Made by a program: the position numbers and the translations under genes. Positions 14,904-59,428 of a stretch of DNA of 64,000 nucleotides are shown here, piece by piece (position 1 is the stretch's first letter; every line of letters starts with the position of its first letter). This stretch comes from Octopus vulgaris (taxonomy: Eukaryota), in the NCBI GenBank assembly GCA_951406725.2, contig OX597818.1, positions 2,418,001 to 2,482,000 on the forward strand, in the 5' to 3' direction. A model generated the notes under the pieces. The model saw only the letters and a list, made by a program, of their open reading frames with translations, did not search any database and was not told where the DNA came from.

Positions 14904-15017
14904 ATATTTTTCAATCAGAGTTTATCTCAGCTGTGTTTAAATTTACAATGTCTGGAAGGTGCCAATTCCTGTAGAGAGCAACATGCTGCACATAAGACAT
15001 CGTGTGGAAGCAAAAAG
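14904..15017 (+). CDS. Exon: ADAMTS disintegrin-like domain (IFFNQSLSQLCLNLQCLEGANSCREQHAAHKTSCGSKK)
   Basis: Pyrimidine tract and tgtag acceptor; weak donor AAG|gttggc; phase 0-0; open frame. Matches CxxLxC...C...AAxxTxCGxxK. Confidence 0.85.
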
Positions 15018-21026: not shown

Positions 21027-21078
21027 TGGTGCGTATCTGGAAAATGTGTATATGATACTGCAGCCCCTAAAATAGATG
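21027..21078 (+). CDS. Exon: end of disintegrin-like domain (WCVSGKCVYDTAAPKID)
   Basis: Acceptor tttcag, donor G|gtgagt, phase 0 in and phase 1 out. Supplies the WCxxGxC motif that follows TxCGxxK in ADAMTS proteins. Confidence 0.85.
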
Positions 21079-25049: not shown

Positions 25050-25220
25050 AGAAATGTCCATTTGGAGATAATGAGAATCTTCGGTTTACGGTGATATTTC
25101 CAGGCAGTGACAAAACGATTGTACCATCAAATTGTAGACAACTTTTAGAATTGGTTCCAGGAGTTTGTGTTAATCAGGCACAAAGGGCCCATTGCTGCAA
25201 AACATGTAATCCAGACAAAG
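25050..25220 (+). CDS. Exon: 6-Cys PLAC-like module (EKCPFGDNENLRFTVIFPGSDKTIVPSNCRQLLELVPGVCVNQAQRAHCCKTCNPDK)
   Basis: Acceptor ttttcag, donor AAG|gtagga, phase 1-1, 171 nt. Cys spacing C-x25-C-x10-C-x8-CC-x2-C resembles PLAC domains. Confidence 0.85.
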
Positions 25221-28868: not shown

Positions 28869-28907
<39 letters not shown>

Positions 28908-28938
28908 AACATGTACATATATATATGTATATGTGTTG

Positions 28939-28989
<51 letters not shown>

Positions 28990-29004
28990 CTGTATCATCA
29001 TCAT

Positions 29005-30878: not shown

Positions 30879-30967
30879 AAACCCCAGGTTCTGCTGCTGC
30901 AAATCCGATGAAATTTTGGTGCTTCATTATTTTGATAACATATGTAACATTCTTTTATCTCTTCTAA
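30879..30967 (+). CDS. Putative terminal exon encoding a GPI-anchor signal (ETPGSAAANPMKFWCFIILITYVTFFYLF*)
   Basis: Acceptor tttatttcag, in phase 1 with the donor at 25220. Small-residue cluster GSAAA, short polar spacer, then a hydrophobic tail ending at TAA 30965-30967. Confidence 0.7.
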
Positions 30968-31099
30968 CTGAAGTAAAGAAACAACAGATGAACAGTAGTT
31001 GTGTGTATAAGTGGATGTATATTCCAGTTTTTAACTGATGTGTTGTGTATATGTTCATAAACAGATATAATTTTAAATTATATTGTTGTGTACATATAT

Positions 31100-31642
31100 A
31101 AGTTTTGATATTTCAAGTAAAACCTTACTTTAGAAAGAGAAAGTTGATCAAAGGAAAATATTTCTCTCTAATGGAAGGCCTTACTCAAAACATTAGATTG
31201 ATATCATTTTGCATCAAAGAAATTTATCCAAATGTACAAACATTATCAACTAATTTTTGCCAATGCAGACCGCACCCAGCTAAGCCAGTCTCTGATTCTT
31301 GGTTTCTATTTATAATTGTTGTATGCATGTTTTTACTATGGCTGTATTAACTGGAGAGGCCTCTTTGCAAGTGCCTTAATCCATCAATAATCATTATATT
31401 TTTCATAGATCTCACTTGCTCTTCAATTATAAATAGAAACCAAGAATCAGAGACTGGCTAAGCTGGGTGTGGTCTGCATTGGCAAAAATTAGTTGATAAT
31501 ATTTGTACATTTGGATAAATTTCTTTAATGCAAAATGATATCAATCTAATGTTTTGAGCAAGGCCTTCCATTAGAGAGAAATATTTTCCTTTGATCAACT
31601 TTCTCTTTCTAAAGAAAGGTTTTACTTGAAATATCAAAACTT
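31100..31642. repeat. Long inverted repeat: 219-bp arms (31100-31318 and 31424-31642) with a 105-bp spacer
   Basis: The arms are reverse complements with only a few mismatches, also visible as mirror ORFs 31105+ and 31670-. Confidence 0.92.
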
Positions 31643-32947
31643 TCCAAGCAATGTATAAACTATTAGTCATTTCTTCCTACTTCTCATTCTATGATTTAGC
31701 TTTTATCCTGCTTTCTTGTTTTAGCCAAGACTTCTGATGTAGATTAATTTTCTACAATCAGTTGTTAATAACTTATTAATTTTATTTTATACCAGATATT
31801 TTTGTAGCTTACATATAATTCTCTCAACAAATCTTGATATGTGCATTAACCAGTTTATGGAACCATCATAATAGAATTATTTATCAATTCAAACTTTTCA
31901 TATCTCTACAGATACTTGAAATTGATTGATTAATTGATTGAGTGTTTGATTGATTGATGTATTGTTTGGGTAATTGTTGATGTTGTTTAGTCCCAAGTTT
32001 AAAATATGTCAGGTTTATTTATTGAATATAAACCAATCAAAATGATATATTGATACAAATTCTATATTTTTTTTTTTTTTTTTTGTTAATCTTATTAATC
32101 TAATTGATCTCTGTTTATTGATCTCATAATAAAATTTCATCCTAACAGGACAAATATTTTACCTATAACTACATTCACTTACACACACATACATATAACC
32201 AAACAGAAAATAAAGGAAGGAAATAATAGCTATCCACTATAAGATGTGACTGCAAATTTAAGGAACTGCCATGTTCACCAATACAATCTTGGCAACAAAT
32301 GTGAGAAGGCAATATAACATTGTGAAATAATCTGTATTTTTGGCAACAAACCACAGATTCAACTACAGTGGGGGAAGGGTAAAAAGTAGAGGGATGTAGT
32401 TATAAGAAAGAAAGCAACTTAACTGTACTGATTCAGTCATCTTTAATATTCTTCATCTTAAACACTTCACTCTCACACCTTTACTTTTCCACAATTTTTT
32501 TCTCCAATGTTAACAAAACAGTTGATATCATTTATTAACCTGACACACAGGTAACAGTCCTCCCTTACTGTTTGAACACATATATTTAACATGCTAGGTA
32601 TTTTTGTCTGTAAACTGGGATCTCATAGACACTCTTCCATGAAGAGAAACTTGATAATTTCATCTCGTTCAACAAGACCATAACATAGACATTATCCAGG
32701 CTCGGAAAACATCTTCAAAGTACATCTTCACAACTTATGACCAGAACACATTTGAAATGGTGACAGGCCAATAGTTATGAACCCCATGACGTAGTCAATA
32801 TTGCATCACAAAATTTGGTTTAGACCTTAAATATATTTTAAAGCTTTGAATATTGAACTTGTATGCCTTATAATGGACAACTGTGCACAGATATACAAAC
32901 ACGTTCCAGAGGCAATGTTTATTTACCAACATCTAATTCTTGGTCAG

Positions 32948-32991
<44 letters not shown>

Positions 32992-33342
32992 TCGCTCTTT
33001 CTCTCTTATACTATTCAATAATCTTTGCTATTTTCAGATATAGACAACCCTTAAACCTGCCTCTCTCCTTATAATAATCTCATTGGGATCCATACCTCAC
33101 TACCACCACCACCACCACCATCCAATCACCACTTCCTACAATTAGATTCTTCTAGAATATCATCTTTGTCACATAATCACCGATTTGAACTCAACCTTAT
33201 AAACCTTACTCTGTAGTTTTAATTGGTCAAGCTATAAGGGCTTGAAAGCTTATTGGTTCTTGTTCTTAGAATAACCTAAGAAATAATGAAAACCTGAATC
33301 TGTTGTTTGGTGATGTCAAGGGCAAAAATTAACATTTTGGGA

Positions 33343-33598
33343 CAGTGCTTCTCAACTGGGGTCCATATGGCCCTTGTGGATCTGTATAAAATTTTGTTGT
33401 TAAAAATTTATGTGCAATAAATTGGCTATACTTCTACAATACACAAAATATTTTAATTTTTCATACAATTCCTAACAATATTTAATTATAAAAATACAGT
33501 AAGATTTTTTTTTATATACAGCAAATAGCTATGAAGATCCAGCAGAATAAAATAGCAATCAAAGGGATCCATAGGCCAAAAATGGTTGCAAACCACTG
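33343..33598. mobile_element. Non-autonomous hAT-type MITE
   Basis: Ends cagtgcttctcaac / gttgcaaaccactg; 8-bp TSD ttttggga / ttttagga. Confidence 0.7.
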
Positions 33599-34938
33599 TT
33601 TTAGGATATAAATAGGAGGGAGATGAGGTCTTTAGAATATACAGGTGCAGTTTCCATATTCTAAGGATTTAATAATGTTGGCAATGAATAAATAAATAGA
33701 ATTGTGTGTGTAAGAGTTATTTCAGACCCTAAATGTGTGCACTTGGTATTTTGTGGGACCCTGAAGCTTTGTTAATATTTTGGACTGAAGGGATCAAATC
33801 ATGGTTTAGCTGAAAGTGTATCTTGTGGTTTATATTCCTTTGTGTGACCAAGGCTGGAAAAATGTTTCAAAAGTGATTATCTTTCACATTTAAGAGATTT
33901 TAACTTAAAATATTGATAATTAATTAACACAAGAGCAATCCATGACATCTATTTTTTGATTTGTTATAATAAATAAAGCAATGAAATAATTTTATAAAAT
34001 GAATTTTTAAATAAAACTAATAAAACAACAAAATTTTTCACTTGTTATTATTTTATAAATGTAGAGTTAGCATTGTAAATAAATTGTCTTTGTGTGCATG
34101 TGTGTGTATATAAGCATACATACATACATACATACATATATACATGCATACTTGCATACATACATACATACATACATACATACATACATACATACATACA
34201 TACATACATACATACAATTTTCACATTAACAGTGACACCGATAGGATTTATGTGAGATGAAGTGATGGTGGTAGAACCTTTGAATGTTGCATTATATCAC
34301 TCAAACAACACCTGCTGAATGGTAAAGAAAGAAACAAGTACATTCCATGCATACTCAAAAGTGAAAGCAGCAACACATTCAAAGATGGAGAAGAACTGCT
34401 GTGCAGGTAATTTGAAAATACAACTCTCTCATGTGACTGAAAGGAGTTTGAACTGGCCTACCTATACAGAATCTTGGAGGAAAAGCAGGCATCAAACCAA
34501 TGCATGGGTACATATCTCGTAAGCTAGAGAGAAATAGCAACATTAACAGGAAGAGTATCCTCTCCTGGATCTGTAATAGATACTTTACACCTCACCTAGC
34601 AGGATATGCCCTCACTGTCCAAGAACTATAGATAGCTGCTAAACAAGGGCAAAGATACCACCAAACCTCCATGTTGTGATAAAAAAATGTCAGTTCTGCT
34701 ATACCAGAGTGGAAGATATCACTCACATCATCAGCAGATGCTCACACTTAGGTATCGACAGTTCAACCAACACACCAACTCAGTCACATATTTACAATCT
34801 GTAGGAACTCTTTTAACTCAAAAAGTCTTGTCACTTTGTTAGCAACCAGCTTGAACTTTCTCAAGGACTTAAATTAAACTCAAAGACAAATCGTACCTAC
34901 ATAACTGTGACTGAGACTTAGTTATTTTAATATTTCAG

Positions 34939-37900
34939 ATATGTTTAATCCATATTTCCAACCACTTGATAACTTTTTTCCTGTATCTAATTCCTTGTTA
35001 CTGGATTCAACTAGCCAAATATTGAAATCTATTTTAGCACTAGAAAATTTAAATGATTCTATGGCATTAGAAAACTTTCCTGTTGTCAAAATGAAACCAT
35101 TAATGAAGGAGCAGAACATCAACCAAAGTAAATTTGATTCACAGATCTATACCATTTCTACTGGAGTCAGTTCTTTAAATATTAACAGCAGACTATTGAA
35201 TATAAATACTAGTTATGTATATAGTTTTAAACAACAGCCACACACTCAAATTAATTCAGACTCTCCATTTGATGAAATGATGTCAGAATCACAAATATTT
35301 TCATCATCATTTGCTTTGAAATCATCACAGCCTTATATATCCCCTATTTTTCAAACTACAAGTAAACTTCTCTCAGAGACGCAAACTCGATCAGATTTTG
35401 ATCTTAATGCAAAACAATATTTTACTCAGAAGAATTTTTATTCTTTATCTACATTGAAAGATCTTATAACCAAAAAGTCTGTCTCTACTGAGACAGAGAA
35501 TCTCCACGGTGCTCTAATAATTTATTCTACCCAACAAATGCTATGGGCTAATTCTAAGACAGAAAGTATGTCACCATATAAATATGATCAAACTAAACTA
35601 TTTGTTCTCCATCCTTCACAATCACAAATATCTCAAATAGATGAAATAGAAAGTCTGTATCCAATCAATAAAAATCAAATATTCTTATACAATGACCATT
35701 TCTTGGGATCTTTTCAAAGTGCAATATCCCAGAGTTATTTGAGCCCATTTAAACATTTTACCACAAATGAGAGACCATTTTCTGATTTGAAGTTCTCTCT
35801 ATCAGGAAATACTTTTGCCTCAGTGAATGATCCAGCTTCTTCCACTTTTAGAAGACCTATTACTAATTCATTGGAATCTAATTCATTACATCAGCCAAAA
35901 TTTATCAAACTAACCATATCTCAGTTGATCTCAGCTTATTTTGATGAATCTCAAATACATTTTGATAGTAAAGAGCTTTTATATATGGCAACTGCTGCTG
36001 CCATTTCTGAAATACCTCAACAACAAGCAAAATGGTTAAGCAACTCTTTCAATTTTCAGAAATCTTTTCACAATAATTTGTATCAGTCTATCATACCAAT
36101 GTCTCATTTTAACGATAATCAATCATTACTACCATCATTAAAGTCTGAAATTTGGGATGTATCTAATGAATTTTGGAAATCAAAACTTGAGCCAGTGATA
36201 ATGAAATCACCTGAAGCTAATCTTTTTGGCTCTAATAGTGATAATTTAGTTCCAACTTTGAGACATCGAACAACAGATATTGTAAATCCTACCCAAAGCA
36301 TGTTACAATATTTCTTGGAGAATTTGTATACAGAATCTATGACAATAGATGAATTTGATACAAAAGAATCTCCTCACTTATCAAATACAGAAATATTGGA
36401 ACCATCTGAGGCTGTGAGTTTAGTTAATGTTGAGGACCTTTTATTGAGGACCTTACAAAATATTTTCCCATCATTTGTGTCTTTAGGAAAAACTAATACA
36501 GACACTTCCTTTACTTCATCTTCAGAAGAATTATTTCATTTACTAAATTCAGGTCTTTCATTTCATACTCAACCTTCTCACAGCATGGAACTTTTACAAC
36601 CATCTACTCACACATACATTCCTATTACTGATTTATCTGAACTATCTTTAGCTTCTTCACAGATTCAAATGCCATTAAGTTTTCAAAGTCCAGTTAATTT
36701 TGATCTTATGAACAAATTTTCTTCACCTAATATGATCTTTTACTCAGATTCTGAACAAATATTGCAAACCTCTCCTGAAAATTTCCAACCATCTCTTACT
36801 ATGACCAAATCAAATGTCTTCAGTGAGGGGCATGATAGTTATGTTTATGATAGCTTACGCTCAAAATTGGAAATTATTACAGCACCAAAAGATTCATTTG
36901 ATAAAACTCAGAGTTATTCCAATCATGTTATTTCCAGCCATATTCCAGAATTAATTGATTCATATTCAAGTTCTTCAACTTTAGAAATACCTGAAAATAT
37001 TTATTTCTCTAAGTCTTTATTACCTCTAACATCATTGAAGAACTTAATTAGTACATCATTAACTCCTGAAGTAATTTATTCAAATCCTTTTCTGCCTAAT
37101 TCCATTCAGTTTGATGATCCAAAATTTTCACTATATTCTCTTGAAATAATTGAAATATCTTCTATGATTGATCAGTTTACACAAGAATTGCCATTGATTA
37201 CGCCTCCAGTTTTTGGAAATACCATAGAATCAAATTTCAAATATTCTCCAACAACATCTACTTCCTCACAAAGTTCAGATTTCATTAGTTCTACAGAAAA
37301 TGGAAATACTTCCATATTGGCATCATCCTACTCCAGTAATTCAGTGAATCCTGTTTATGATTCTTCAATGATAAATGTTGCTGTCACCAATTTTACCATG
37401 CATAATAGTTTGGTATCAACCTTACATTCTGACATTGACTATCAACTGGAATCTATATATTCATCATCAGAATCTGTTTATCTATATTCGTCTCAGATAC
37501 CACTGTTTGTGTTGTCAAGTTTTATTAGTGAAGATAAAGAATCAAACCATTTAATTCCAGAATTTAGTTATCTGTATTCATCTCAGACATCTATGCTTGT
37601 ATCATCAAGTTTTATTAGTGAAGATAATTCAAACCCGAAATCTTCCTCAAATATATCTAATTCTAGTTTATTCACTTCAAGTAATTTAACACTTTCATCC
37701 AAACAAATGGCAACTTTGTTGATATCAAATTATACTTTAGCATCAATTAATACCAATACTTCAACAAAACAGGAGTCATTGAATAATAATAACTCTGAAA
37801 CAAAGAGAATTTCAAATCTTTTGACTGCTACAGAAAGTAGTTCCATGCAAAAAACTGAATTTTATGTTTCTACTTCATCTGTATTGGAAATGTCTTCTCG

Positions 37901-37953
37901 AAACATGCAGCTCAACAACAGCCTTTATTTTCAACATTTTTGGATTGTTACAA
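34939..37953 (+). CDS. Large internal exon (1005 codons): Ser/Thr-rich mucin-like ectodomain stalk
   Basis: The 1038-aa ORF 34941-38057 has acceptor tatttcag at 34938 and donor A|gtaagc at 37954 (phase 1-1). No Cys inside the exon. It ends QHFWIVT and joins in frame to IIKVRSD. Confidence 0.85.
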
Positions 37954-39065
37954 GTAAGCCAATTTTAGTGATATTTCTATTTTTATTTGGTCACACAAAA
38001 TACTTTACTGTTCTGTGTCTTTCACATTCTTCCAATATATATATATATATATGTTAATGTCTTATTTATACTCAGAAATATGGTAGATGCTGCTAATGAG
38101 GATGATAATGACAGTGATGGTGATGATATGATTCTCATTGCTGAATCTGTTGAAGCATTGCTGTATAAAGAAAGCAAAACATGAAGTTTGGTTTATTTTC
38201 TTGGGTCTGAGTGTCAACATGTCAAATACTAAACTTAATATCAGTAACATGGAGTATGGCACTGCATGGACCTTGGCAGATATGTAATACAGGAGATGGT
38301 AATCTTGTTTAATTCTGTTGTGATTTTCTTTCTGTTTATTTTGTTTCCTCAAAGATTTTCCATTTGGTGGCCAGCTTGGAGTTCCTAAAATATCTAATCT
38401 GTAAGACCCAATTAAAACATATGTTGCTGACCCACCAAATTTGTTGAATTACCATTTTTTAATTGTATTAACTTGTTCTGAACTGCCCCACCATCTTAGG
38501 CGCTTTCATGCAGAGCTTTGTTTCCTTTCCTTATAACTACTTTTGTTAATCTCTTTCTCTTTTCACTTTTGCTGCTGTTTCTAGCACAGTGAGTATCTCT
38601 ATAGATACTACCACATTGGCACATTTTTAGCAGGTCTCTTTTTATTGGTTTGTAGGTTTTTGATGTGAACAAAAACCATTGTTCTTCCTCTATAGGGAAG
38701 TCTGTGAATCAGTCTGTTAAGGTTTCTAATAGAATCTAAAAGAACTGTGGCTTAAAGATAATGTAGCAGCGCAGAACCTCAAACACTGGAGGTATTTAGA
38801 TATTGTTCATGATTAATAACTACTCTGAGTAAAGCTATATCTAAGCCATGTTTAAAAAAGGGACAACCTTGAAAAAATGATTATTTTCAGGGAAGAAATT
38901 ATTATTTATGATTCAATAAAATTATGAATATTATAATTGATGTATGTGTGTGTAAATCCACTGAAATTCTGAAGTTCACAACTGATTTTCTCCAAACTGG
39001 GAACTTGGTTGCTTGTTGGTTCAAGGGACAGGACTCTTGATGATATCTTTTTCTACCACTATATA

Positions 39066-39980
39066 TTGGATCATTCCATAAATAATATGTTTTCTTATAC
39101 TTCTTTTATTTTTCAAAATTATAAGATAAAGAAAGTTCCTTTTTAATCTAAAATGTACTCTCCTTAATTTTCTGCAATGTTCTTCCATTTATCTGGTAGA
39201 CTTGCAAAGCCCCTCTTCCAAAATTCACTTGTCCATGATTAAAAATACTCTTCCAGTACTGTTCTGACCTCATCTACAGAATTCATATTTTTTCTGTCCA
39301 AATGATTTTGAAGAGTGCGGAATAAATGATAATCAGAAGGGGCAATGTCCAGCAAATATGGTAGGTGGGGCATTGTTTCCCATTCAAACTGCTCCAACCT
39401 TTGGAATGTCATCCTTGCTGTATGTGGCTGAACATTATCCTGATGGAAGAACACCTTTTGTCTTGAAACCAAAAGATGGTCGTTTTCCAATGGCATGCAG
39501 GTGTCAATGAATGGTTGAATGACCAAATCCAAGCTTCTCTGCTCGTTCCTCAACAGTTACAATGGAATTTTGTTCCACCAGGGTTTGTTAGGATGTCCTC
39601 ATCAAGCTCTACAAATCTTCCAGGACAAGAATCATCTTCTAGGCTTGGAATTTCTGGAACAATCATTGACATTGGCTTACCCTTATTGTCCAATTCCCAT
39701 ATACTGCATTAATATTCCTCACACTTTCCATTGCATTGTTGCCTTTATTGAACTCATAGAGCAAAATATGCTGAATATGCTCTTTTGTCACTTCCATTAT
39801 AGCTTTGAAAAAATAAGTGTTAAAATTGAACTGCAATCTTCAAAATTTGCACTAAGAATAAGTACAAGGTAAAATTACTACCTGTTTTTATAGTAAGCTG
39901 ATGCAGATAGTTTATCCCATCCCCCTCCAACTTTTAGTGCATGTGATTGAAAAAATTGCATTATTTATGGGATGACCCAA
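39066..39980 (-). mobile_element. Mariner transposon, internally deleted
   Basis: TIRs ttggatcattccataaataat / attatttatgggatgacccaa with TA flanks. FHQDNVQPH...HLPYLLDIAPSDYHLFRTLQNHL. Confidence 0.9.
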
Positions 39981-40199
39981 TATTATGACTTTTCTCTACT
40001 GATCTGTTATGGAGCTGAATTGATGCTGCTTTCCAGTGATTGATAGTTATCTGAATTTACTGCCAGTCAACAGTTTTTGTAGCAATTACGGAATTCAGAT
40101 GGTTCTGAGATTTTACTACTCTAGCAAAGCTGTTATCAAATTGTATTACAGTAGCCAGTAGTTGTTCATATGTTCTAATGCTAACAAAATGACAGACCT

Positions 40200-40430
40200 A
40201 GGAAACAGAACATTTGTGGTTGCATGGTAAGAAGTTAGCTTCACAACCACATGGTTCCAGGTTTAGTCCCACTGTGTGACACCTTGGGCCGACCAAAGCC
40301 TTGTAAGTGGATTTGGTAGATGGAAACTGAAAGAAGGTCAATGGATGGATGAACGATGGATAGATGGATGGATGGACAGACAGACAGATGGCCACAGTCA
40401 AGTGACTGAAACAAGTAAAAGATAAAGGAT
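40200..40430 (+). mobile_element. SINE family A copy, internally deleted
   Basis: caaccacatggttccagg...gccgaccaaagccttg...gaaactgaaagaag, then the gactgaaacaagtaaaaga 3' end. Confidence 0.75.
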
Positions 40431-40896
40431 AAAATATATACTCTCCAATACTGAAAAATTGTACAAAATATACCAGAATCAGCAATAAAACAAACATGCA
40501 AATTGACTAAATATTATTTCTCATATAGATATGTCCAACTATGAAGAAAGTTTTAAATCCTTTCATTAGGCAGGCTTTTGATCTCTGCCTCACAAGGCAT
40601 TAAAACTTCAGCACTTCAGAAGAAAAAGAGGAATTCTGGTTTAAGCACCCCATATAACCCCTCATATTTTTTTTATTTTTTGGAATTTTCAGAAAATTTT
40701 TGTGAATTTGTGTTCTACACATGGGAATTCATATGATTATGGAAGGAAAAAAATTTTTAACCCCATAAATCCTAAAAGTTCCACTTTTTTTCTAATGTTT
40801 TCTGAATTCAGAGTTTGAAATACAGACTGCCCTTGAGTGCATCATCATTCCATTAAATGTGTTTATAAGGAGAAAAAAATATTGAAAAGCATAGAC

Positions 40897-43573
40897 CAGT
40901 GGTTCCCAAACTTTTTAGAGTCACGACCCACTATTTATCACACCAGTTTATGACGACCCACTTTACTCTACTCTACTTAACAAATTTATTTCAGATTACA
41001 TCTTCAGTGAGGCCTGTGAGAAGGATGAGCCTGTTTCTTGCTACGCTCAATAATAGAATTAACATCAGGTTCAATGCGTGATAGTTTCAGGCATAAAGAA
41101 TTTGAGAGCTGCAGTTTATTTTGATATTTGCTTTTAATCCCAACCATTGCTGAAAATCCAGCTTCACAAATATAAGATGATGTGAAAGGGAGAAGTACTT
41201 TTAATGCTTCGGTGAAAATGATTGGGTACGAGGTTTGAAGAGACGCCCAGAACTGTACCAATTTTCAGGTGTTAAATCGATAAGTTCCTCATCGGCTTTT
41301 GTTGATATTCCAGTCGTCACGTCAGGCTGAAAGGGGTTCATAATCCATCTTTTCTGTTGCATAGTATTCATCTCTTTATGAAAATAAAATTCAAAACTTT
41401 CATTTAACTTATTCAAGTGTTCAGATATCTCAATGATTATACCATCATCAACTTTTGCTTTATTCTCCATTACAAAAGTTTCAAAACAGTCATAATTTCG
41501 GTTGTTAATACGATTTTTCCACAAGACAAGTTTTTTCATAAAACCTCGAATTTTCTCATGAATTGCAAATATACTGATACCTTCTGTTCCTTGTAAATAC
41601 AAATTCAGGTCGTTTAATTTCGAAAAAATATCTGCTAAATACGTAAGCCTCAGAACAAATTCTTCATCGCGCAAATATTTTGCAAAATCGCTTTTATCTT
41701 CTAAAAATATAGCTACTTCTTTGCAGAGTTCTGCAAGTCTTGTTAACACTTTTCCCCTAGAGAGCCATTATATTTCTGTGTGCAAAAGAAGTGATTTATG
41801 ATCGCTTCCCATCTCTTCGCACAACTTCTGAAATAGGCGTGATTGCAAAGGCTTTGACTTAATAAAGTTCACTATTTTGACTGAATTATTCAAAACATTT
41901 TCAAAATTATCAGTTTTGAAACTAACGCTGCCCTGTGAAGGTTACAGTGAGTCCATGATGCATTGGGATTAAGTTCAAGTATTCTGGTCACCATACCACT
42001 ATTTCTACCGCACATAGCCTGTGCGCCGTCTGTACATATTCCGACACATTTATGCCAATCAAGATTTTTTTGCTCTTATATAAGTATTAACTGTATTAAA
42101 ATTTCATCGTTGGTACTTCGACTGACAGGTTCACCGAACCACATATCTTCATGAGGTACAAAGTTCCATTTGTAATGTACAAAAACAAGTAGCTGGCACA
42201 AACCTTGTACATCAGTAGATTCATCAAGTTGTAAAGAAAAAAAAAGACTTCCACGAATCTGTTCAATAACTCGATTTTCTACCCATTGAGACATTTCATC
42301 AATTCTATGCGTGACTGTGTTATTAGAAATAGGAATTGATTCAATTTCTTGTTCACTCTTATCACCAAAGAAAACTTTAACTGTATCTGGAAGAACTAGT
42401 CTCCCCAATTTTGTGTGGCTTACCAGTTTTTGCGATTCTTAAACTGATCAAGTAAGACACATACAGAGATTTTTCATTTACTTTGGTGTAGTGTTGCATA
42501 ATGCTCTATCCTATCTTTAACTTGGTTAACATTCGCTCAAAAAAATCGAGAGGCTTGTCTTTTAACTCAGAGTGCTTAGTCTCAAGATGACGACGCAATT
42601 TGTTTGGACGCATGCTCTCGTTTGCAAGTTGTTCATAACAAATGATGCATCGTGGTTGTGGATCTTCTTCAACTCCATTCCATGTAAATCCCATTTTTAA
42701 GTACTCGTAATCATACTTTCTTAATACTTTTCTTCGCTTTGACTGGCTTAGTTTTGATTGGTCTTTTCTTCATTTCGATCCACTGAAGACTCTTCATCAT
42801 CAGCTTCAACTGACTTTTTTAACCATTTATCCATAATATGAAGGACTGAGTAAATACGAAAAAATCGAATTTAGAAGGACAGATAATTTCGATTTACCGA
42901 GAGATTTGACAGAATTAAAATACAATGTTTGGGATCATGCGAACTTCTACAATTAATGATAAACGTCATTTCAGTTGATGTGATGCTATTTAAACCGTTT
43001 ATCTGATAGACTCTATTGATCTATCTACCGTCTAGCTGCTGTCTATTCCAATCATTTCTTTGGCTAATTGATAGCCCCCTGGTGATCACTCCCATACTTT
43101 TTAAATAATTTATAAACTTACTAGTGAAATCCATAATGTCTTATTTATTAAAATTTTTTGCTATTTATATTAAATGTGATACAAAACGTTTTATACCTGT
43201 TTCAATGTCTCTATCCCCTATGTGTAAATACTAACACTAATACAAAACCTTGAAGTAGTAACTATTATCGGCTCGATCAGTGTTATACTTCGCCTTGTTA
43301 AAGTTCTCAATAAATAGGTAAAAACAGACCTTTCCTTTTTACGATTACGTACGAATAAATAACTTGAGAAAATGACAACCTCTGATTTGTTAAGTTCATG
43401 AAAAGGCTTTCTGCTTGATAAAACAAGTCTGGTATTGAAAACATAAGTCTTGAACTATCTCGATAGACAGTAGTTAATCAAAGCTAATGCGTAATTTTAT
43501 AACTTTTTGCCACCTACTAAGATTCCGTTCGCGACCCACAGATGGGTCGTGACTCATAGTTTGGGAACCACTG
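40897..43573 (-). mobile_element. hAT (Buster/Charlie-type, ZBED5/SCAND3-like) DNA transposon, full length with frameshifted transposase
   Basis: 16-bp TIRs cagtggttcccaaact / agtttgggaaccactg and a perfect 8-bp TSD gcatagac. BED finger PRCIIC...SMRPNKLRRHLETKH, FSLQLDESTD, LLPFTSSYICEAGFS. Confidence 0.95.
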
Positions 43574-43879
43574 GCATAGACACATATCAGAAAGAAATGA
43601 GTATAGCTTTGTTAAGCTACACACAAATAAACTCACAGAGACGAGAATGTATTAGTGAAAGATCTATTCCCGTAAGTACATCAGGGTGACAGCCACCAGT
43701 TACTTCTGCCTCTTTGAAGCCCTCTCGACTGAAAGTCTACTTCACTGCAGACCAGATCCCTAGCTAGCCTGCAGCAAAGTTCCTGTCTGCAGATTGTCTG
43801 TCATAAACCCTGCTCTACATAGCTTCCCCTCCCCCCAGAACTGTTGACTGTCATTGGAACCAGGAAGGCGTTTTAATTG

Positions 43880-46470
43880 GAGAGTGGACCAGAACTCGCA
43901 TCCCCTGTCAACAAGCCAAGGTTCATCAGCACACCAAAGCACCCCTTGGCAGCTATGAATCACCACAGGCTCATTTCAGCTGCTGAGATTTTCTTTTGAG
44001 GTGGTGTGGTTTCCCAGCATCACCATGCAACTGGGCCTGTTAAGTCTGGTTGTCAGGGATTCCTTCAGGTGGCAATGTGGATGATAGGCTGTTGTGTGGT
44101 TCATTGTGATTCCTAAATGGTCACACATCTTCCACAGCTTTGAGGTGAATTGTGGACCCCGATTAGATGAGAGGCTGCCTGAGACACCAAAACGGGTGAC
44201 TCAGTTTGCAATGAAGGCTCGGTTGCAGAGAGGGATAGCCACAGGCCAATGAGTGTAGCGGTCTACCAAGGTCAGTAGGTATAAGCAACCTTGTGATGGT
44301 TGACAAGGGACTAACAAGATTGATATTGACGTGGCTGAAACAGGCCTGTGGTGGTTCATAGTTGCCAAGGGGTGCTTTGGTGTGCTGGTGAACCTTGGCT
44401 TGTTGACAGGGGATGCGAATTTTGGTCCACTTTCCAATTTGCTTGGCCTTACCATTCCAGATAAATCTGCTTATCAGCAGGTGTTGTGTGGTTGTAGTAC
44501 CTGGGTGGGACAGTCTGTGAATGACATCGAAAACGTTCCTGCACTAGGCTGATGGGACAATCGGTTGTGGCTTCACACAGTAGGGTTGTGCCGTTGGAGC
44601 CAATGTGCACATTCTGCAAGGAAAATTATGTGATGGCAGTGTTGTAGGGCCTGATCTCATCTGTCTGTTGGGCTGTAGCCATAGCCATGTAATCCAGGCC
44701 TTCTGTTATTGGAGCTACGTAGGTGTGAGAACATGTAGGAGCACTAGAGAGTGCATTGGTGACTTGGTTGTCCTTTCTAGCTATATCTTGGATGTCTGTA
44801 GTGTACTCAGAAATGGCCGATAGCTGTTATTGCTGGCATGCAAACCAAAGCTCTGAGAGCTTGCTCATAGCAAAGGGGAGTGGTTTGTGGTTTGTGAACA
44901 CTGTAACCGTGCAGCCTTCAAGGAAATAACGAAAGTGGCAGACACTTAGATGGACAACCAGTAGTTCCCTGTCAAAAGCACTGTATTTCTGTTCAGGGGG
45001 TCATATTTGTCGACTGAAGGTGATTGGTCACCACTGACTGTTGATGTGTTGTTCCAAAATACCCCCAAAGGCTGTGTCGGGTGTGTCAACTGTAAGTGCA
45101 GTCCATGCTGACATATGAAGATGGGACAACATGGTTGCTTTAGCCAGAGCCTGTTTTGTGGATTTGAAGGCTGAGATCATTGCACCATCCCACTTCACCT
45201 GTTTTTTTTAACCATCTTTTGACAGTGCCTTGTATAGGAGTCTCATCACTCTTGCTACAAAACGGATGGAAAAAATGGTAAAAGTTTACCAAGCTCAGAA
45301 ATTAGCATAGAGCCTTGCTTGTGGTGGGGTGTGGAAAAGATATGATAGCTTTCACTTTTTCTGGTAGGGGTGTAGCATCTGCACCTGTGATTCGATGTCC
45401 CAAGAAGTTAATTTCTGTAACACCAAAAACATATTTGGCAGGGTTGATTACTAGGCTATACTGTTCCAGTCTATCAAAAAAGAGCCACTAGGTGCTTCTT
45501 GTGTAGCTCTGCATTTTGGCTTGTGATAAGGATATCATCTAAATATGCAAAGACAAAATCAAGACCTCTGCATACTGTGTCCATCAAGCAGAAGGATTGT
45601 GCTATGTTTTTCAGGCTAAAGAGTGTACGTAGGAATTCATACAGACCAAAAGGAATGATCATGGTGGTTTTCAGTACATCATCATCTTGCCCTGGTATTT
45701 GGTGGTAACCTCGGATGAGGTCGACCTTCAGGAAAACCAAGCACCCTGCAAGTTGGGCTGAGAAATCCTGTATGTGTGGAATAGGGTGCAGTCTGATGTT
45801 GTATCAGCATTGAGATGGTGGTAATCCCTGTGGGATTGATAACCTCCATTGGGTTTGGGGGACACATGCAGGGATGACAACCAGGGACTGCTTGATCGAC
45901 GTACTATGCCCAACAGCTCCATATTGTCAAACTTGGCATTTGCGATAGCAAGTTCGTTTAGTGATAGATAATGTGCACAGCTGTGCACTGGGAGAGGCTG
46001 GTGGTGGGGATGTAGTGTGTCACTCCATGGTGTGTTGCAGGAATGGAGAATGTTGGGGTAGTGAGATTGGAGTGATTCACAAGGAGGTTTGAGAATTCAT
46101 TCTTGGTCTGAGAGATGGTTGCTCTGTGGGGGCGGGGTGCAGATGCTGCCAGAGACACAGAAGTGTATGTGTTGCTGTTGATGAGTTATCTACCCTGCAA
46201 ATCAACCAGTAGCAAGTGTGCTTGAAGAAAGTCTCCCCTGATAATGGCTGATGGACATCAGTGATGGTGAATGCCCATGTGTATTTTTGTGAGCCAATGT
46301 TGAAAGAAAGGATGTGGTGACTGTACACCTTGATTGTGGACTTGTTGCAGCTGTTAAAGGGTGGCCTCACTTTCCATAATGGAGGTCCCTTGCCAATGCT
46401 GGGATCACACTGACTTCTGCTCCTGTGTCAGTTAGGAACCTACATCTAAGGCCATTTACTTGATGGGAGT
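43880..46470 (-). mobile_element. Gypsy/Ty3 LTR-retrotransposon pol relic (protease, RT, RNase H, integrase); no LTRs identified
   Basis: FLTDTGAEVSVI (protease), KVDLIRGYHQIP..PFGLYEF...FAYLDDILI (RT), YLLTLVDRYTHWP (integrase), in Gypsy domain order. Confidence 0.9.
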
Positions 46471-47300
46471 AGAGTCCTGTGTGTTTTCCTGTTCACTAGA
46501 ACTTTGGTCTTTGCTAAGTTAAACTATAAAGGCCTTTGATTCCAAGTTTGATGCTTGTCTTTTCACTTTTGTAACTTTGACTACCTCACAGTTTCACCAC
46601 CAAGTTACTCTCAGTCTGGCTAGGACCTTGCACCAGTCACAGATTTGTTCTTCAGCCCTTAGTATGTTGTCCCAGAGGAATGTCCAGTTCTTTCTTTACC
46701 AAAGTGGATTGTTTCACTGAGTCCTCCTTGCTCTAATTCCATTCTTTTGTGAAATTACTCTCTTTTTCCTTCATATCAACTGTGTATTTTCTTTCATACT
46801 CACTCATGTATGAGAATATGTGTTGGCAACTCAACACTATCTTTATCTTATTTTCCAGCTACTCCCACTTATTTTATATTATGTGGGGTAGCCATGTATC
46901 TCCTCTATAGTAAAACACATGGTTTTGTCTCTCATACTTTAGTCTTTTAAAACCTGGCATAAAGCCATCTTCCTTCCTCTCAGATACATCCCCACTCAGT
47001 TTTCTTTTCTTGTCTTGCAACTAGTACCAGTATCATGAAGAAAGTACCCAGTAGACACTGTAAGTGGTTCATATAAGGAAGGAGATTCAGCTCTAGAAAT
47101 CATGCCAAAACAGCCATTGGAGCTTGTCAGATCCTCTCAAACTGTCCTACTCATAACGTCATGGAAAACTGATGTTAAATGATGATAATTATGATGATGA
47201 TATCTATCTGTCTATCTACCTATCAATAGATAGATAGATTTCTGTAAAGTTATGAATAGTTTGACAGTTAATTATTATGATGCAATAATTTCTGTTACAG

Positions 47301-47476
47301 TCATTAAAGTTAGAAGCGATATCGATGTAAATTCATTTGAATTCAAACATGGCATGGAAGAACGTTTAGCCAGAAGTTATGTTGAAGCATACAAAAGAGG
47401 TGAACACATCCTGAATGGAACTTACCGTCCTCTTCGGAAAAAACGTTTTGCTGTTGTAAAAGACATTGCTTTACAG
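47301..47476 (+). CDS. Exon: KIAA1549/UPF0606-like juxtamembrane domain, part 1, with RKKR furin motif
   Basis: Acceptor ttacag, donor CAG|gtgaat, phase 1 in and phase 0 out. IIKVRSDIDVNSFEFKHGMEERLARSYVEAY...RKKR resembles the F..EMERKLA..L..basic-cluster segment I recall from KIAA1549-family proteins. Confidence 0.85.
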
Positions 47477-47999
47477 GTGAATTCTGTTCAATTAATTGTT
47501 TTAATCTACTGTACTAATTAATCTGTTTTACTATATAGTTTCTTTTTATCTTATAGTTTCTTTTTATCATGATATTTTAAAAATTTCAGTAATTTTATGG
47601 ATAGTAAATTCCATTAATTTCTGACACGATTAAAGAATTTCCTGTTCCCTGTGTTGTACTTACTTGTTTGTTCCTTCTATTTCATATAACTGGTCGAGAG
47701 GAAGAGAAGCTGATAGAAGAGGGCTAGAGTAATAGAAGCAAGAGGATGATGGAAGACAGAGTAATGGAAGAGAGCCAGAGTGAGAGTGTGATACATGAGA
47801 GAGTAGTTGAGAGAAAGAGAGGGGTAGACAGTTACATCATACTTGTTAGTGAGGATATTAAATACAAGTAATATGACTGAGAGGATGATAGAAGAGAGAG
47901 TAATGGAAGAGAAGCAGAGTAATAGGAAAGTAGCAGGAGGCTATGGTAACAATGATAGAAAAGAGAGAAAGAAGATATAGCATGTCTATGGGCCTGTCT

Positions 48000-48760
48000 G
48001 TAAATGATTTAATCGCAATCAGTCAAGAGGCTTTTCTCTGAGATTTGGTCCTAGCTATATTAAGGATGTTTTTTCTCCAAGAAGATCTTTAGTGATAGTG
48101 ACGAACAGCATTTGGAGTGACTATGAGGTATCTAACTAGGTGATCACATGTTTAGGTAGGGTAGGTGTAGTGGTCTTTTCTTGATATGAGTAGTGTTTGA
48201 GTACTTTTGCTCTTAAAAGTTAGTAAAGCTTGACTGGAAGATATGTCTAGAAATGGAATCAATGCCAGTTTGGTATGTAGCATATTAATTGCTTTTGGAT
48301 GTTACATGGTCAGGAAAATGAGGAAGGAATGAAGAGTTGTGTCATCTGCATTTGAACAGACATTGTTGGATGTGGTGGAAAATAGATCACTGATATATTA
48401 AAGGAAGAGAACAGAGGACAAAACTAAGCCCTGGGAAACACCAGAGTTGATTGAGAGTGGAGCAGAGAAAACTCTATTTAAACATGACATGAGAGTGATT
48501 TAGTAGGATGCTGCCAGTCTAAGAAATGAGGGTTGGATGGAGTTTGTATTTTAGCAGTTTTGCCAGGAGATTGCTTGTCAGAAATGGTCTTCTAAAGCAA
48601 GAGCCCCCTGGTGAGTGACATAAGAAAGTAGGTCTCCAGTGGATCTGGCTCTGTGGAAGCTGTACTTGGGTCACTGAGGAGAGAGAGGTCCAAATTGTTG
48701 GAGATTGTCATTGTTAACGGCTGTCTCTGTTACCTTGGATATGTTAGAGGTGAGAGCAAT
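48000..48760 (-). mobile_element. CR1/L2-like LINE RT fragment, decayed
   Basis: Minus strand reads INSGVSQGLVLSSVLFL..ISDL.......NADDTTL. Confidence 0.65.
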
Positions 48761-49609
48761 AGTGTAGTATAATGTTTTACATTCCATAAGTTGATGTTTT
48801 TTAGCTCAGATCAAACCTAATCCAGTAGACCTATGGTCAAAGAGACTCCAGCTATGATCATTCCATTTTTCTTGCTGTCATAGTATACCTAGAATCACAT
48901 GATTCCATGTCTCTTTCCGTTTTAAGACAGTATGATGAAGTATGAAAGATATTTTGGTTGTTATTTCTAGCAGGTTTTGTGTGACCCCTAAAGAAGCTCC
49001 CTAATTAATTTAACATTTGTGTTTACGGTAGTATATTCTGTCAAATAAACTATGTTAACCAGATTCTTTGAAAAATTTTGGTGCTTGCTCTTTCAAAATA
49101 AATTATTGGAAATTTAATTAGTTGGAGATATTAATGAAGAATTAACTTTATAATTATATCTCATGGTTATGTTTGAAGACTGAATCAAAGAAACCTTTAA
49201 GTTTTGATGAGTTTTGGAAATTAACAAACATCTAGTCTTAGTTTGAGTGGAACAGAAATTAGAAAATGTTTTGGTCTGAATATCAGAAACTGGCGAGAAA
49301 ATGAAGTTGGGAGTCTGAGAGCTGTTACACAACTCCAGCTCCATAAAGAATATGAGTTGCTTGATCTGTTAGAAATAGTGACTAATTCTCTTTTATATCA
49401 CACCATACCATTTTAAAGGAAAAGATAAGACAATTAAAAGATGTTTAGAATTGGAATACCTTTGATCATAGGGAACAACAGTAAACTAGCTCAGAATCTG
49501 AAGTGAACACCCCCCCCCTGCCACACACATACAACATACCGTGATATACAAGAGACAAGACATTTGAAGATTACAACGCCAATGTAAACCAATGTGTGAT
49601 GTCTTTCAG

Positions 49610-49784
49610 ATAATGAAAATTGTGCACTTTAATCACGGAACCTCCCAAAATGTAAGTTTGGTGTATTATATGGAGAAAAATGGCAGACCAGTTCCAGCTA
49701 AGGATGCCATAAAACACATGAATCTTATTCAACTTCAAGAACTTGCTATTTATCTCAATCACGTTGTTGTTCTTAGAGCAGAAG
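49610..49784 (+). CDS. Exon: KIAA1549/UPF0606-like juxtamembrane domain, part 2
   Basis: Acceptor tttcag, donor G|gtaagt, phase 0 in and phase 1 out. VSLVYYMEKNGRPVPAKDAIKHMNLIQLQELAIYLNHVVVLRAE fits the family pattern LxYY...NG...A.......Q..A..L...V...A. Confidence 0.85.
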
Positions 49785-50859
49785 GTAAGTCAGTTTGAAG
49801 TTTGGTTTGATCAATTTTTTAAAAGATTTTCATATAGAAAATATTCAGTTTATAAGTAATACATGACTACATTAAGTTGTCCATAAAAAGTTTTCCCACC
49901 TCAATATTTGAAATAGCAGGTAAAAATTTTAATGATACAATAAGCACCTATGATGTGAAGAAATTAACCCATTATCCAGTTTATCATCACCAGGTTCTAA
50001 GGTGCTTTTAACAGATGTTAAATGTTGCAAGCATTTGTGTTGGGTCTTCTGTTTGAAGATACTGTCCTTCCACCCTTCTATTTAACTGGGATGTCCTATA
50101 AAGGGCCATGGTATGGCCTTTTCTACTAAAAGATATAGGGATTAGAAAACTAGGCTTAATTACTCAGAGTTACCATCTGCAGTAATAAATAATAGTTAAG
50201 TCAGTGTGGACATTAATACAAAGAACATCAACACTTTAATTTGTGGTAGACAAAAAAACAATGAGAAGGAGGAGGAGGAAGTGAAAGGACAGCAAAAGGA
50301 TTAAAGAAATGAAGAAGTCTGTGTGTATATCTACATGTGTATGTGTGTATATATATATATATATATAGGGAAAATAATCTTATTCAAAAATACAGACCAC
50401 AACTAAACATACTCTAACATACCCCCCAGGTACACATCCAAAACAAACACGCACAGAAACACATACAGATATACAAAATCACACACACACAAAAACAATG
50501 CCAACTTCAGATGCAAATACACTTGCACAAACACAATATCCTCCCGCTAGAACACAAACCCTCACACATCCCAGAAAAAAACACATACACATATACACTT
50601 GCAATAAGATTTTAGCATCCATAACCAACACTTTTACACATATATACACATGTGAACACGGATATGCACACACCTACACACACCACCCCGAAATTACAAA
50701 TCACATCCACACAACCACAACCACACACACACACACACACACACAATACGCCCGCACCCCAGTAGTAATATCACACACAGACACTCACATTCAAAAGGAA
50801 AAAGACACACATACACGCACATTACAACCACAACAAACATTCACAAACATACATACACA

Positions 50860-51134
50860 CAAGCATGCACACACACAATGACAAATACAAGACGCATAAA
50901 CACACCCACACACAAACACATACTCAATACCAACACACATAAAACACAAATACCAATCACGCACATACATACACACACACACACAACACCAAGACAATCA
51001 CACACACGGTTGACAAACGGGCACGCATATACACACACCATCCTACCAAATTTTAAAAACACACACACAGACACATCTATTTACACCACAATGGACCCTG
51101 GGACCAATCAAAAATGGCCCACACACACAAACAC

Positions 51135-51181
<47 letters not shown>

Positions 51182-51621
51182 CACACCATTCTGACCCGCA
51201 TACAGATGCACATATATACACACACATGCGCACACACAGCACCATGACAAATACTAATCACGCACATACATACACACACAAACACATGTATATGTATATA
51301 CACACACACAAAGACACACACACTTGCACCATACATACGCACACACACAAACATACTCAATACAAACACACACAAAATGCATAAACACACACTCACACCA
51401 CCCAGACAAACCTAACACACATGGACACACATACGAACAAACACATACACACACTAGCGCACACACAACACACTAACACACATTAACCACACACATACAC
51501 ACACACACAAACAGGCACACATATACACACACCATCCTACTAAATTTTAAAAACACGCATCTATTTACACCACAATGGACCCTGGGACCAATCAAAAACA
51601 GCCCACACACACAAACACATG

Positions 51622-51658
<37 letters not shown>

Positions 51659-52380
51659 TCACACCATTTTGACCCCCATACAGACGCACATATACACACA
51701 CGTGCGCACACACAGCACCATGACAAATACCAATCATGCACATACATACACACACACACAAACACATGTATATGTATATACACACACACATAGACACACA
51801 CACTCGCACCATATATACGCACACACGCAAACACATACTCAATACCAGCACACACAAAACGCATATACACACACACACACACCGCACAAATACACCCAAC
51901 AGACATGGACACACATATGAACACATACACACACTAGTGCACATGCAACACACTAACACACATTAACCACACACATACACACACACACACAAACGGGCAC
52001 ACATATACACACACCATCCTACCAAATTTTAAAAACACACATCTATTTACACCACAATGGACCCTGGGACCAGTCAAAAACAGCCCCCACACACACAAAC
52101 ACATGTATATATATATATACACACACACACACAAAGACACACACATTCACACCATTCTGACCATACAGACACACATATACACACACATGCACACACACAA
52201 CACCATGACAAATACCAATCACACACATACATACACATACACAACACCAAGACAATCACACACACGGTTGAAAATTGGGCACACATATACACACACCATC
52301 CTACCAAATTTTACAAACACACACAGACACATCTAGTCACACCACATATGTATATATACACACACACACTCGCACCATTC
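50860..52380. repeat. Compound CA-rich satellite, about three units of about 480 bp
   Basis: The anchor atctatttacaccacaatggaccctgggacca recurs at about 51074, 51559 and 52041, embedded in (CA)n/(TA)n. Confidence 0.85.
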
Positions 52381-52931
52381 TGACCTCTAAAGACCAATCC
52401 CCCAAATCATTGATGCTTGAAGGAGAGACAAAAAGAAATTTTTTTCAGTTCCACATTACTCTTCCTTCCCCCCACCCAAACACACCTACAGTGTCCCTTG
52501 AAATAGAAAATAGTCTTTTACAATAACATGGTGGACCAGGTCAGTTTGAGCTTCCCTACTACTATAATGTAAACTTTTTTGAACTCATAATATTCTACTG
52601 AACTTTTCAATAATTCCTTCTGGAAACTATCTTTAACATTTTCTTGAGAATGTATATATATGTTGTAATATTTTGTGCCCAATATTTTAATGAACTTGTT
52701 AAACTTTTTTATGTTCTTAACATGTTCTTGTTACCAAAGAATGTATATATGTATTGTAGCATTTTGTGACAACCAATAATTAACACAACCAATCTTTTAC
52801 ATGTTACCTTTTGACAATCTTTTTCCAAAGAGTGAAACCGGTAAAGTAAATAAGCATCTTTTAAAATTGCATTTTCAAACCTTCTTTCATATATAATTCC
52901 ACTCGTGCAGTACCTTACAACTCCACTTTGT

Positions 52932-52962
<31 letters not shown>

Positions 52963-53049
52963 ATATATATGTATTTGTATCTATGTTAATATATGTACCT
53001 GTATAAATTTGGAGTAAACATTTTCTGGTGTGGGTGATGGAAACTTTCA

Positions 53050-56000: not shown

Positions 56001-56420
56001 GAATTTTTTCTGAGCAATGGATGAGTCAGTCCTTTTATTTGGAGCCTGGATGCTTATCAAAATTCTGGCATTCAGTCTAGATGGAACTTACACCTGAATG
56101 TTAAGAACAGTCTTAAATATATCTTGGAGAACTCATCCCACCAAGAAACAGCTGTATGTTTCCAACATTATAAGGGAAATGTGCTTGCACTTTGCAGGAT
56201 ATTGCTGGCAAGCTAAAGAAGAGCTTGCAAGTCACCTACAGCTATGGATGCCAAGTACCAACTTGAGCTGGTTGTCCAAACACAATGTATGTAGTTCAAC
56301 TCACCAGGTACACTTGATACCTCTCTGAAGACCTCCATTAACTAATGTAGAACTGAGATGGATGGTGTATGCAGGTTAGAAATGTCTGAGCAAGCTTGAC
56401 AAGAAGATGTTAAAACAGCT
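53050..56420 (+). mobile_element. Near full-length LINE (APE endonuclease and RT; RTE-X-like), decayed
   Basis: STFNVHTL, DIICEQDH, IGGDLNAHV and QLDYML (APE); QIGFRKNRS, NFSKAF.SI, VLQRDTL and DYADDLAL (RT); many stops. Confidence 0.85.
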
Positions 56421-56997
56421 GAGTGCTGAGCATGCTGCTGTACTCCATCACTGAATTCAGGAGCTGATGTCTCATCAGACAGTGAAACAGCTTTGTAATG
56501 TGAAAACAGACAGTGAAAACAGCTTCCACCATGACACCAGAACTGCCTGGGGCCACCCACTGATGTAGGTGAAAAAACTCCCACGCTCATTGCAAGCTTT
56601 GCTGAGTCAAAAGTTTGTAACTCTGGGCCAGCTGTTTCTACCATCTTCAATTGCTCATTTTTGCTGCATCATTTGTCCTCTCTCTCAAGCTAGATGTAAT
56701 GGTCTGCTTTCTCGGCAGCTTCTGACAATTTTCTGGCAACATCTTTTCTCTCCTTCACAAGTCCAAGACTTTCGAGTATTGAGTGAATCTTGATTCCATA
56801 AAATATATATATGTATATATGTATCTGTGTGTGTATGTACTTGTGTGTACTTATACAAACACATACATACATACATATGTACATACGTACATATGTACAT
56901 ACATACATACGTACATACATACACTCATACGTATGTACATATGTACATACATACATACATACATACATACAGATATATGCACACACACACACACACA

Positions 56998-58216: not shown

Positions 58217-58248
<32 letters not shown>

Positions 58249-58319
58249 CCTGAGTAAACACATAAATGTGAAACAAGGTGGGAAAAGAGTACTCAATTAC
58301 TAGTGGTAGAGTAATATGC

Positions 58320-58450
58320 TTTATTTAAAGCAGCGGAAAATTCAACAAAACCTGTTACTCTGAGTTTCACGTCCCCGTTCGTTGGACAGTTTTCTAACAA
58401 AAACTGTCCAACGAACAGGTTTTGTTGAATTTTCCACTGCTTTAAATAAA
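58320..58450. repeat. Nested inverted repeat containing a degenerate hammerhead motif (Penelope pseudo-LTR-like)
   Basis: Outer arms tttatttaaagcag.ggaaaattcaacaaaacctgtt and its reverse complement; inner arms gttcgttggacagtttt / aaaactgtccaacgaac. Confidence 0.75.
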
Positions 58451-58504
<54 letters not shown>

Positions 58505-59206: not shown

Positions 59207-59262
<56 letters not shown>

Positions 59263-59428
59263 GACTGGGGAAGCCATGTATTGCATCTACAGCAAGACAC
59301 CTGTTTCTGTCTTTCCATTATTGCTTAACCTCTCATCACCTGGCTAGAAGCCACTTCTCTCAATACTACTACTCCCTCAGTTGAAGAGTCTTTATCTTTG
59401 TCTCGTACATTGCTTATCTTCCAGTATA

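Follow-up and report, generated by a model that had tools for sequence, protein, structure and literature searches.

The short exon at 30879–30967 is very probably the last coding exon of an ADAMTS-like M12B protease with a predicted GPI-attachment signal, and the transmembrane 'isoform' proposed for the same gene very probably a gene-model chimera. The window referred to below is the whole stretch of DNA that was analysed, 64,000 nucleotides at positions 2,418,001–2,482,000 of contig OX597818.1 from the 2.8 Gb genome of Octopus vulgaris; negative positions lie upstream of it. In a preliminary description, the donor after 25220 was held to choose between 30879, giving a short GPI-anchored protease, and 34939, giving a long stalked transmembrane form. 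The splice to 30879 is borne out (four of four runs), and the alternative at 34939 is not, being another gene's internal coding sequence at the edge of a duplicate. The result corrects a public chimeric gene model (MTMR13 plus protease plus KIAA1549) and flags a 35.6-kb inverted duplicate as misleading both to readers and to annotation. If GPI attachment is confirmed, the gene would also be of modest and testable interest for the evolution of proteases and for molluscan matrix remodelling; no new splicing mechanism is involved.

The terminal exon

The 3' end of the protease gene is laid out as follows.

30879..30967, + strand: coding part of the terminal exon (25220→30879 joint in four of four runs, tail pattern test, single copy in the genome)
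30968..34030, + strand: 3' UTR of ~3.1 kb (contig ends in four runs, list of AATAAA motifs)
31100..31642, + strand: 219-bp inverted repeat (repeat search, z −37; dense A>G differences)

The exon is preceded by a pyrimidine-rich tract (76% pyrimidine at −20 to −4) and CAG, and the donor after 25220 reads as phase 1. Bases 30881–30964 encode TPGSAAANPMKFWCFIILITYVTFFYLF, with the TAA stop at 30965–30967. The exon is single-copy in the genome assembly. Four runs (X1, X6, X3 and X18, representing four studies and two organism labels) were compared with positions 24,900–41,300 of the window, and each has one contig with the 25220→30879 joint, ends GT..AG. These contigs are unbranched, cover 25050–25220 whole and extend 1,357–1,623 bases upstream of that exon. 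Their depths are 14 (X1), 20.7 (X6), 287.8 (X3) and 15.1 (X18), values that cannot rank expression. None of the runs listed with matching contigs is recorded as RNA; because the spliced joint is present, X1, X6, X3 and X18 must contain spliced RNA. In X3 (organism B), 2 of 233 letters differ in the piece corresponding to 30877–31109; the terminal exon is thus conserved under the second organism label as well. The acceptor, its phase and the hidden short exon with its stop are as first described: the exon is real and is spliced onto the protease, and it is likely to be the sole last coding exon of the gene. Sequence alone would have been weak proof, because 22 of the 315 acceptor-like terminal ORFs on both strands of this AT-rich window pass the hydrophobic-tail and omega test, the 30879 exon among them.

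Polyadenylation had been expected near the AATAAA motifs at 32128 and 32209, and both are rejected as the main 3' end, since the contigs of all four runs traverse them and end at 33926–34026. Motifs at 33968, 34010 and 34019 adjoin these ends, which places the main poly(A) site at a likely position of ~34.0 kb. Within the 3' UTR there is an inverted repeat with arms at 31100–31318 and 31424–31642 (97% complementary). A>G differences vary between runs, and 28 of the 29 listed UTR sites fall inside the repeat arms; these sites likely reflect A-to-I editing (ADAR hyper-editing of a long hairpin).

The terminal exon is absent from the three public models examined. One, P0001 (CAI9722309.1, labelled Octopus vulgaris), matches the window exons at 100%; this automatically generated protein, 1,636 aa in length, combines uDENN/DENN domains (MTMR13), reprolysin and ADAMTS cysteine-rich domains, a long Ser/Thr stretch and a KIAA1549 domain. 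Both P0001 and its sister P0003 skip the 30879 exon, while the O. sinensis fragment P0002 continues into the intron. An O. sinensis fragment of the protease gene is annotated as 'mig-17-like'.

The protease gene

The following protease exons lie in or next to the window.

−752..−647 and −335..−171, just upstream of the window: zinc-motif and Met-turn exons (tblastn, splice sites)
2274..2400, + strand: end of the catalytic domain, linker and start of the ADAMTS cysteine-rich (disintegrin-like) domain (tblastn of P0001/P0002, splice sites, Pfam PF17771 and PF01421)
14904..15017, + strand: ADAMTS cysteine-rich domain 2 (tblastn, Pfam, splice sites)
21027..21078, + strand: end of ADAMTS cysteine-rich domain 2 (tblastn, splice sites)
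25050..25220, + strand: single six-cysteine module ending in CCxxC, phase-1 donor (spliced contigs cover the whole exon)

The M12B catalytic domain (PF01421) scores 34.4 bits against a Pfam cut-off of 20.8, and behind it lies ADAMTS_CR_2 (PF17771; E 3.5e-11, above the Pfam cut-off). The zinc motif HExxHxx[G/N]xxHD and the Met-turn are both present in the catalytic half. At the position that is Gly in many M12B enzymes, the motif carries Asn, a feature shared with ADAMTS1, the best solved relative (E 8e-11). By eye the six-cysteine module is PLAC-like, and Pfam gives it no PLAC match. Neither a TSP1 repeat nor a spacer is matched by Pfam in P0001/P0002. Likewise, no TSP1 repeat was matched by Pfam in 30 relatives, and the WxxWxxCSxxC pattern occurs in none of the best 150 of 1,030. 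Four window ORFs searched singly gave no Pfam match, and a simple splice-site scan of the window recovered few exons.

No 5' protease exons were found within 100 kb upstream of the window. A family profile search places seven candidates between −291,907 and −259,655, and one more candidate, of 35 bases, at −3,676. All eight follow the order of the profile, with GT/AG boundaries and splice phases that agree; a RIKR furin site and the conserved Asp-His are encoded among them. Singly they are weak (best 17 bits), and the 5' exons lie ~256 kb upstream, beyond 13 assembly gaps. A phase-1 exon at −331,471 is, by eye, the best of eight signal-peptide candidates. With it, the candidate upstream exons supply 1,558 coding bases before 25050, compared with up to 1,623 upstream bases in the contigs. 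If these exons are right, the precursor would have ~605 aa, a length that fits the contigs. A profile match at −262,444, which is without splice sites and ends in a stop, was dismissed as chance, and the P0001 exon at −27,463, which matches no relative, was taken as spurious.

The stretch from −256,705 to −16,680 contains thirteen 100-N gaps, interspersed with the MTMR13 pieces of P0001. Because these gaps and pieces sit between its two halves, the protease gene is likely to have been split by scaffolding. The N-terminal MTMR13/SBF2 exons found there are on the same strand as the protease. An SBF2 family search of the genome for the rest of MTMR13 found nothing, and its control likewise gave no match. 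No full-length cephalopod ortholog of the protease was present among 441 candidates at E≤1e-10 (query residues 286–563, proteins <899 aa).

Predicted GPI signal and related proteases

The terminal exon encodes a hydrophobic run of 17 residues up to the stop, with no cytosolic tail (mean hydropathy 2.17, best 11-mer 2.47). Candidate omega sites GSA, SAA and AAA are located 25, 24 and 23 residues from the C-terminus and are followed by a polar spacer; the hydrophobic tail ends 33 residues after the last CCxxC. The tail was assessed with our own script, using the familiar omega rule (small residues at omega, omega+1 and omega+2, ~17–32 from the end, plus a polar spacer). By this home-made test, the small omega residues, spacer and hydrophobic end noted in the preliminary description are indeed present. 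The protease is thus predicted, with considerable confidence and by sequence pattern, to be GPI-anchored, and would probably be displayed on the outside of the plasma membrane.

When 1.84 billion representatives were searched, 1,030 matched at E≤0.001; the best 150 of these were examined. By the same pattern test, 31 of these 150 have GPI-like tails, 28 a helix plus tail, and 91 neither, many being incomplete. The omega pattern is found in 29 of the 31 GPI-like relatives. When the same proteins were cut at random internal points, 324 of 30,000 ends passed (1.1%), as against 31 of 150 natural ends. Eighty relatives have a Met start and a hydrophobic stretch at the N-terminus, and 22 of these relatives pass the GPI test. 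The tail ends no more than 45 residues after the last CCxxC in 22 of the 31. Fifteen of the 31 were looked up, and the 12 with a given organism are all from gastropods or bivalves (Patella, Lottia, Haliotis, Nucella, Lymnaea twice, Physella twice, Elysia, Argopecten, Pinctada and Solemya). The five transmembrane relatives looked up belong to Lingula, a brachiopod, and to four bivalves. In a quick tree built from 149 core domains, the GPI-like label changes 20 times, against a mean of 29 and a minimum of 23 in 200 shuffles, a clustering that kinship alone would also produce. Support near the octopus branch is low (0.49–0.63), and MIG-17 and Sona were left out of the tree.

A rival reading of the tail is that the hydrophobic run is retained as a short transmembrane tail anchor or ER-retention tail, with no GPI added. 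A run of 17 hydrophobic residues of this mean hydropathy could span a thin membrane, and in some relatives (e.g. P0011 and P0015) a short charged tail stands behind the run. In the octopus protein, however, zero residues follow the run and small residues lie at the usual omega distance, and relatives show the same succession: CCxxC, then small residues, a spacer and a hydrophobic end. A retained anchor is accordingly considered unlikely, and a GPI signal remains the preferred reading.

Among the relatives there are three pairs of isoforms from the same gene. The first pair has a GPI-like end in common, the second diverges at the start alone, and the third (P0041/P0156) diverges at the end. In the last pair the ends are GPI-like and non-hydrophobic, possibly an anchored/secreted switch. 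In the Patella isoforms P0014 and P0154, the GPI-like end is the same, and an internal block of cysteine modules with a Thr-rich stalk varies. In the Solemya relative P0034, 20 CCxxC modules, of a type without a Pfam match, separate the protease from the GPI-like tail.

The octopus genome also has intronless paralogs on C17, C8 and C24, which are possibly retrocopies. Only the C8 copy passes the GPI test (1 of 3); the C24 copy has a hydrophobic run and a short tail, and the C17 copy has no tail. The zinc-binding histidines are lost from the C8 and C24 copies, which look like membrane-bound pseudo-proteases, while C17 keeps the motif. On C10 (~3.30–3.33 Mb) lies a multi-exon paralog with an intact HExxH, whose zinc motif is interrupted by the same intron. 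Taken together, the balance of evidence leans towards a molluscan branch of GPI-anchored ADAMTS-like M12B proteases, in which secreted, GPI and transmembrane forms come from different paralogs and not from splicing; the octopus gene would be a catalytically intact member from a cephalopod.

The 34939 'exon' and the inverted duplicate

The downstream part of the window is occupied by the following features.

34932..64000, continuing to 70526, + strand: inverted duplicate of a KIAA1549-like gene, truncated at both its 5' and its 3' end (self-comparison of the sequence)
34932..34938, + strand: false acceptor, seven coding bases of KIAA1549-like exon 2 ending in CAG (duplicate edge)
34939..37955, + strand: truncated copy of the large Ser/Thr-rich KIAA1549-like exon 2, previously described as a 'stalk'
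61080..61292, + strand: duplicated KIAA1549-like exon with the transmembrane helix (PF12877)
near 47291, 49607 and 62123: further duplicated KIAA1549-like exons

These exons belong to the KIAA1549/UPF0606 family (PF12877), and the exon at 34939 is part of a separate KIAA1549-like gene, not of the protease. The segment 34,932–70,526 (35.6 kb) is an inverted copy of 135,405–170,995, with an identity of 99.5–99.9%, and starts 7 bases before 34939. The CAG at 34936–34938 is coding in the intact copy, inside Ser-Ile-Ser-Asp, and the frame there extends 131 codons further up to its own strong acceptor; it is the duplication edge that puts AT-rich DNA before the CAG. The intact gene lies further downstream on the minus strand; in window coordinates, its signal-peptide exon 1 is at 246,732 and its last exon at 77,546. 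It encodes a signal peptide, a long Ser/Thr stalk, one transmembrane helix and PF12877; the duplicate in the window lacks the first exon and the last exons. PF12877 is matched at E 8e-13 in P0001 and 4e-16 in P0162. The O. sinensis protein LOC115212170 (1,864 aa, with PF12877 and no zinc motif) maps exon by exon onto the intact copy. This protein, O. vulgaris P0161 and O. bimaculoides LOC106873933 all read across the point equivalent to 34939, and the zinc motif is absent from the O. sinensis and O. bimaculoides KIAA1549-like proteins.

Two large DNA-like runs of unrecorded kind, X15 and X16 (one study, two organism labels; 76% and 98% read), have the intact arrangement only. In both, a single contig of 5,183 bases shows no match to the window before 34932, the unmatched letters at its 5' end are those of the intact copy, and the depth at 34901–34931 is 0; the 34931/34932 junction is absent from both runs. 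The GPI-versus-transmembrane switch that had been proposed is contradicted by this absence, and by the O. sinensis and O. bimaculoides proteins that read across the 34939 point. The duplicate itself either reflects an error of assembly or is confined to the sequenced animal, and we infer that a fold-back, in the cell or in the read, best fits its origin. The two copies differ at 3 of ~3,100 exon bases, less than expected for two alleles at the O. vulgaris heterozygosity of 1.22% given in PMC10700109.

There are some grounds for a single gene that switches, in the manner of NCAM, between the short GPI exon at 30879 and a stalk with transmembrane helix via 34939. The splice phases fit, 25220 is joined to 34939 in the public models P0001 and P0003, stalked transmembrane forms make up 28 of the best 150 of 1,030 relatives, and the annotated pair P0041/P0156 has one GPI-like end and one that is not. 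These points are outweighed by the position of 34939 within a truncated inverted duplicate of another gene, 7 bases from an edge that neither DNA-like run contains. Where the arrangement is intact, the KIAA1549-like gene runs on the opposite strand, so that the splice cannot occur. The models P0001 and P0003 also fuse MTMR13 pieces over two assembly gaps and are without the copy-specific 5' and 3' exons, and none of the three isoform pairs of relatives contrasts a GPI with a transmembrane end. The 25220→34939 splice is not found among the 15 joints listed of 57, and the four spliced contigs have no branch, though assembled contigs drop rare forms. RNA cover at 34939 is thin; X6 and X14, with no contig over 34932–35264 at 95% likeness, are uninformative about this splice. 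A regulated switch is regarded as extremely improbable; the long transmembrane form exists only as a public chimeric gene model.

A milder version of the fusion supposes that the duplicate is real but confined to the sequenced animal or its lineage, and that read-through of the poly(A) site yields a little chimeric protease–KIAA1549 mRNA, a newborn fusion rather than a regulated switch. Consistent with a real duplicate, no N gap occurs at either of its edges, its far edge is inside a local palindrome suited to fold-back, and the copies, besides being so nearly identical in their exons, both have G at 35085 where X15 and X16 have C; the reading frame also continues without a stop through the transmembrane exon. 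A read artefact produced by fold-back would, however, give an identical picture, the poly(A) region at ~34.0 kb precedes 34932, and no joined RNA is seen. This reading is judged improbable, although less so than the switch, and a chimera of gene models is preferred to either.

Two further observations concern this region. The segment 34260–34931, just before the duplicate edge, is a repeat-like fragment, and many X15/X16 copies match 34650–34870 and then diverge. At 37709, inside the large exon, a loose end of at least 255 letters before this position is common to three runs; it has no match in the window or the 20 loci compared, and possibly represents another locus or an unseen splice.

Comparison with known systems

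MIG-17 has a PLAC domain at its end. The layout of MIG-17 and Sona (prodomain, M12B protease, disintegrin-like and cysteine-rich) is the same as that of the octopus protein, in which the prodomain exons and RIKR are inferred. Four domains and a likeness to MIG-17 are described for Sona in PMC4989167, which describes the MIG-17/Sona family as secreted; MIG-17 is secreted, travels to basement membranes and acts on them (PMC11232982). In contrast to these secreted enzymes, which it resembles by domain layout, the octopus protein ends in a GPI-type signal. The catalytic and cysteine-rich domains also align with those of vertebrate ADAMTS1/4/5/13 (E 8e-11 to 7e-7), but the octopus protease is without TSP1 repeats and spacer, and has an anchor signal at its end. 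It is therefore not a canonical ADAMTS (no TSP1/spacer), and not an ADAM (no helix plus cytosolic tail).

NCAM-120, as opposed to NCAM-140/180, arises by the use of alternative last exons. Its GPI signal is carried on its own small terminal exon, as in the octopus gene, but the latter has no second, transmembrane last exon. Among metzincins, vertebrate MT4-MMP (MMP17) and MT6-MMP (MMP25) are attached to the cell surface through GPI, and their family also includes paralogs that are secreted or transmembrane. MT4-MMP and MT6-MMP are M10 matrixins with hemopexin domains, and the octopus enzyme, an M12B protease, would be like them in placement only; a GPI-anchored molluscan branch would be their M12B counterpart.

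The earlier remark that a GPI-anchored ADAMTS-like protein would be unusual applies in comparison with secreted vertebrate ADAMTS, MIG-17 and Sona, but not within molluscs, where predicted tails of this type are common. No GPI-anchored M12B/ADAMTS-like protease of invertebrates or molluscs was found in the literature, as judged by titles and abstracts with few subscription papers covered, and the GPI-tailed branch of molluscan M12B proteases is apparently undescribed. If GPI attachment is confirmed, it would represent a third placement of ADAM/ADAMTS-type proteases besides secretion and a transmembrane helix, and one that, if true, is apparently wide in snails, bivalves and octopus.

The usual steps for such an enzyme are ER entry, omega cleavage, GPI transfer and furin activation. 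On this scheme the precursor would enter the ER via its signal peptide, the transamidase would cut at G/S/A 23–25 residues from the end and add GPI, and furin would remove the prodomain at RIKR. By analogy with MIG-17 (PMC11232982) and Sona (PMC4989167), as described in those papers, matrix remodelling beside the producing cell would be the likeliest role. The tethered enzyme may trim matrix or shed surface proteins beside the cell, and a phospholipase could release it. The anchor would confine an enzyme that diffuses in worm and fly.
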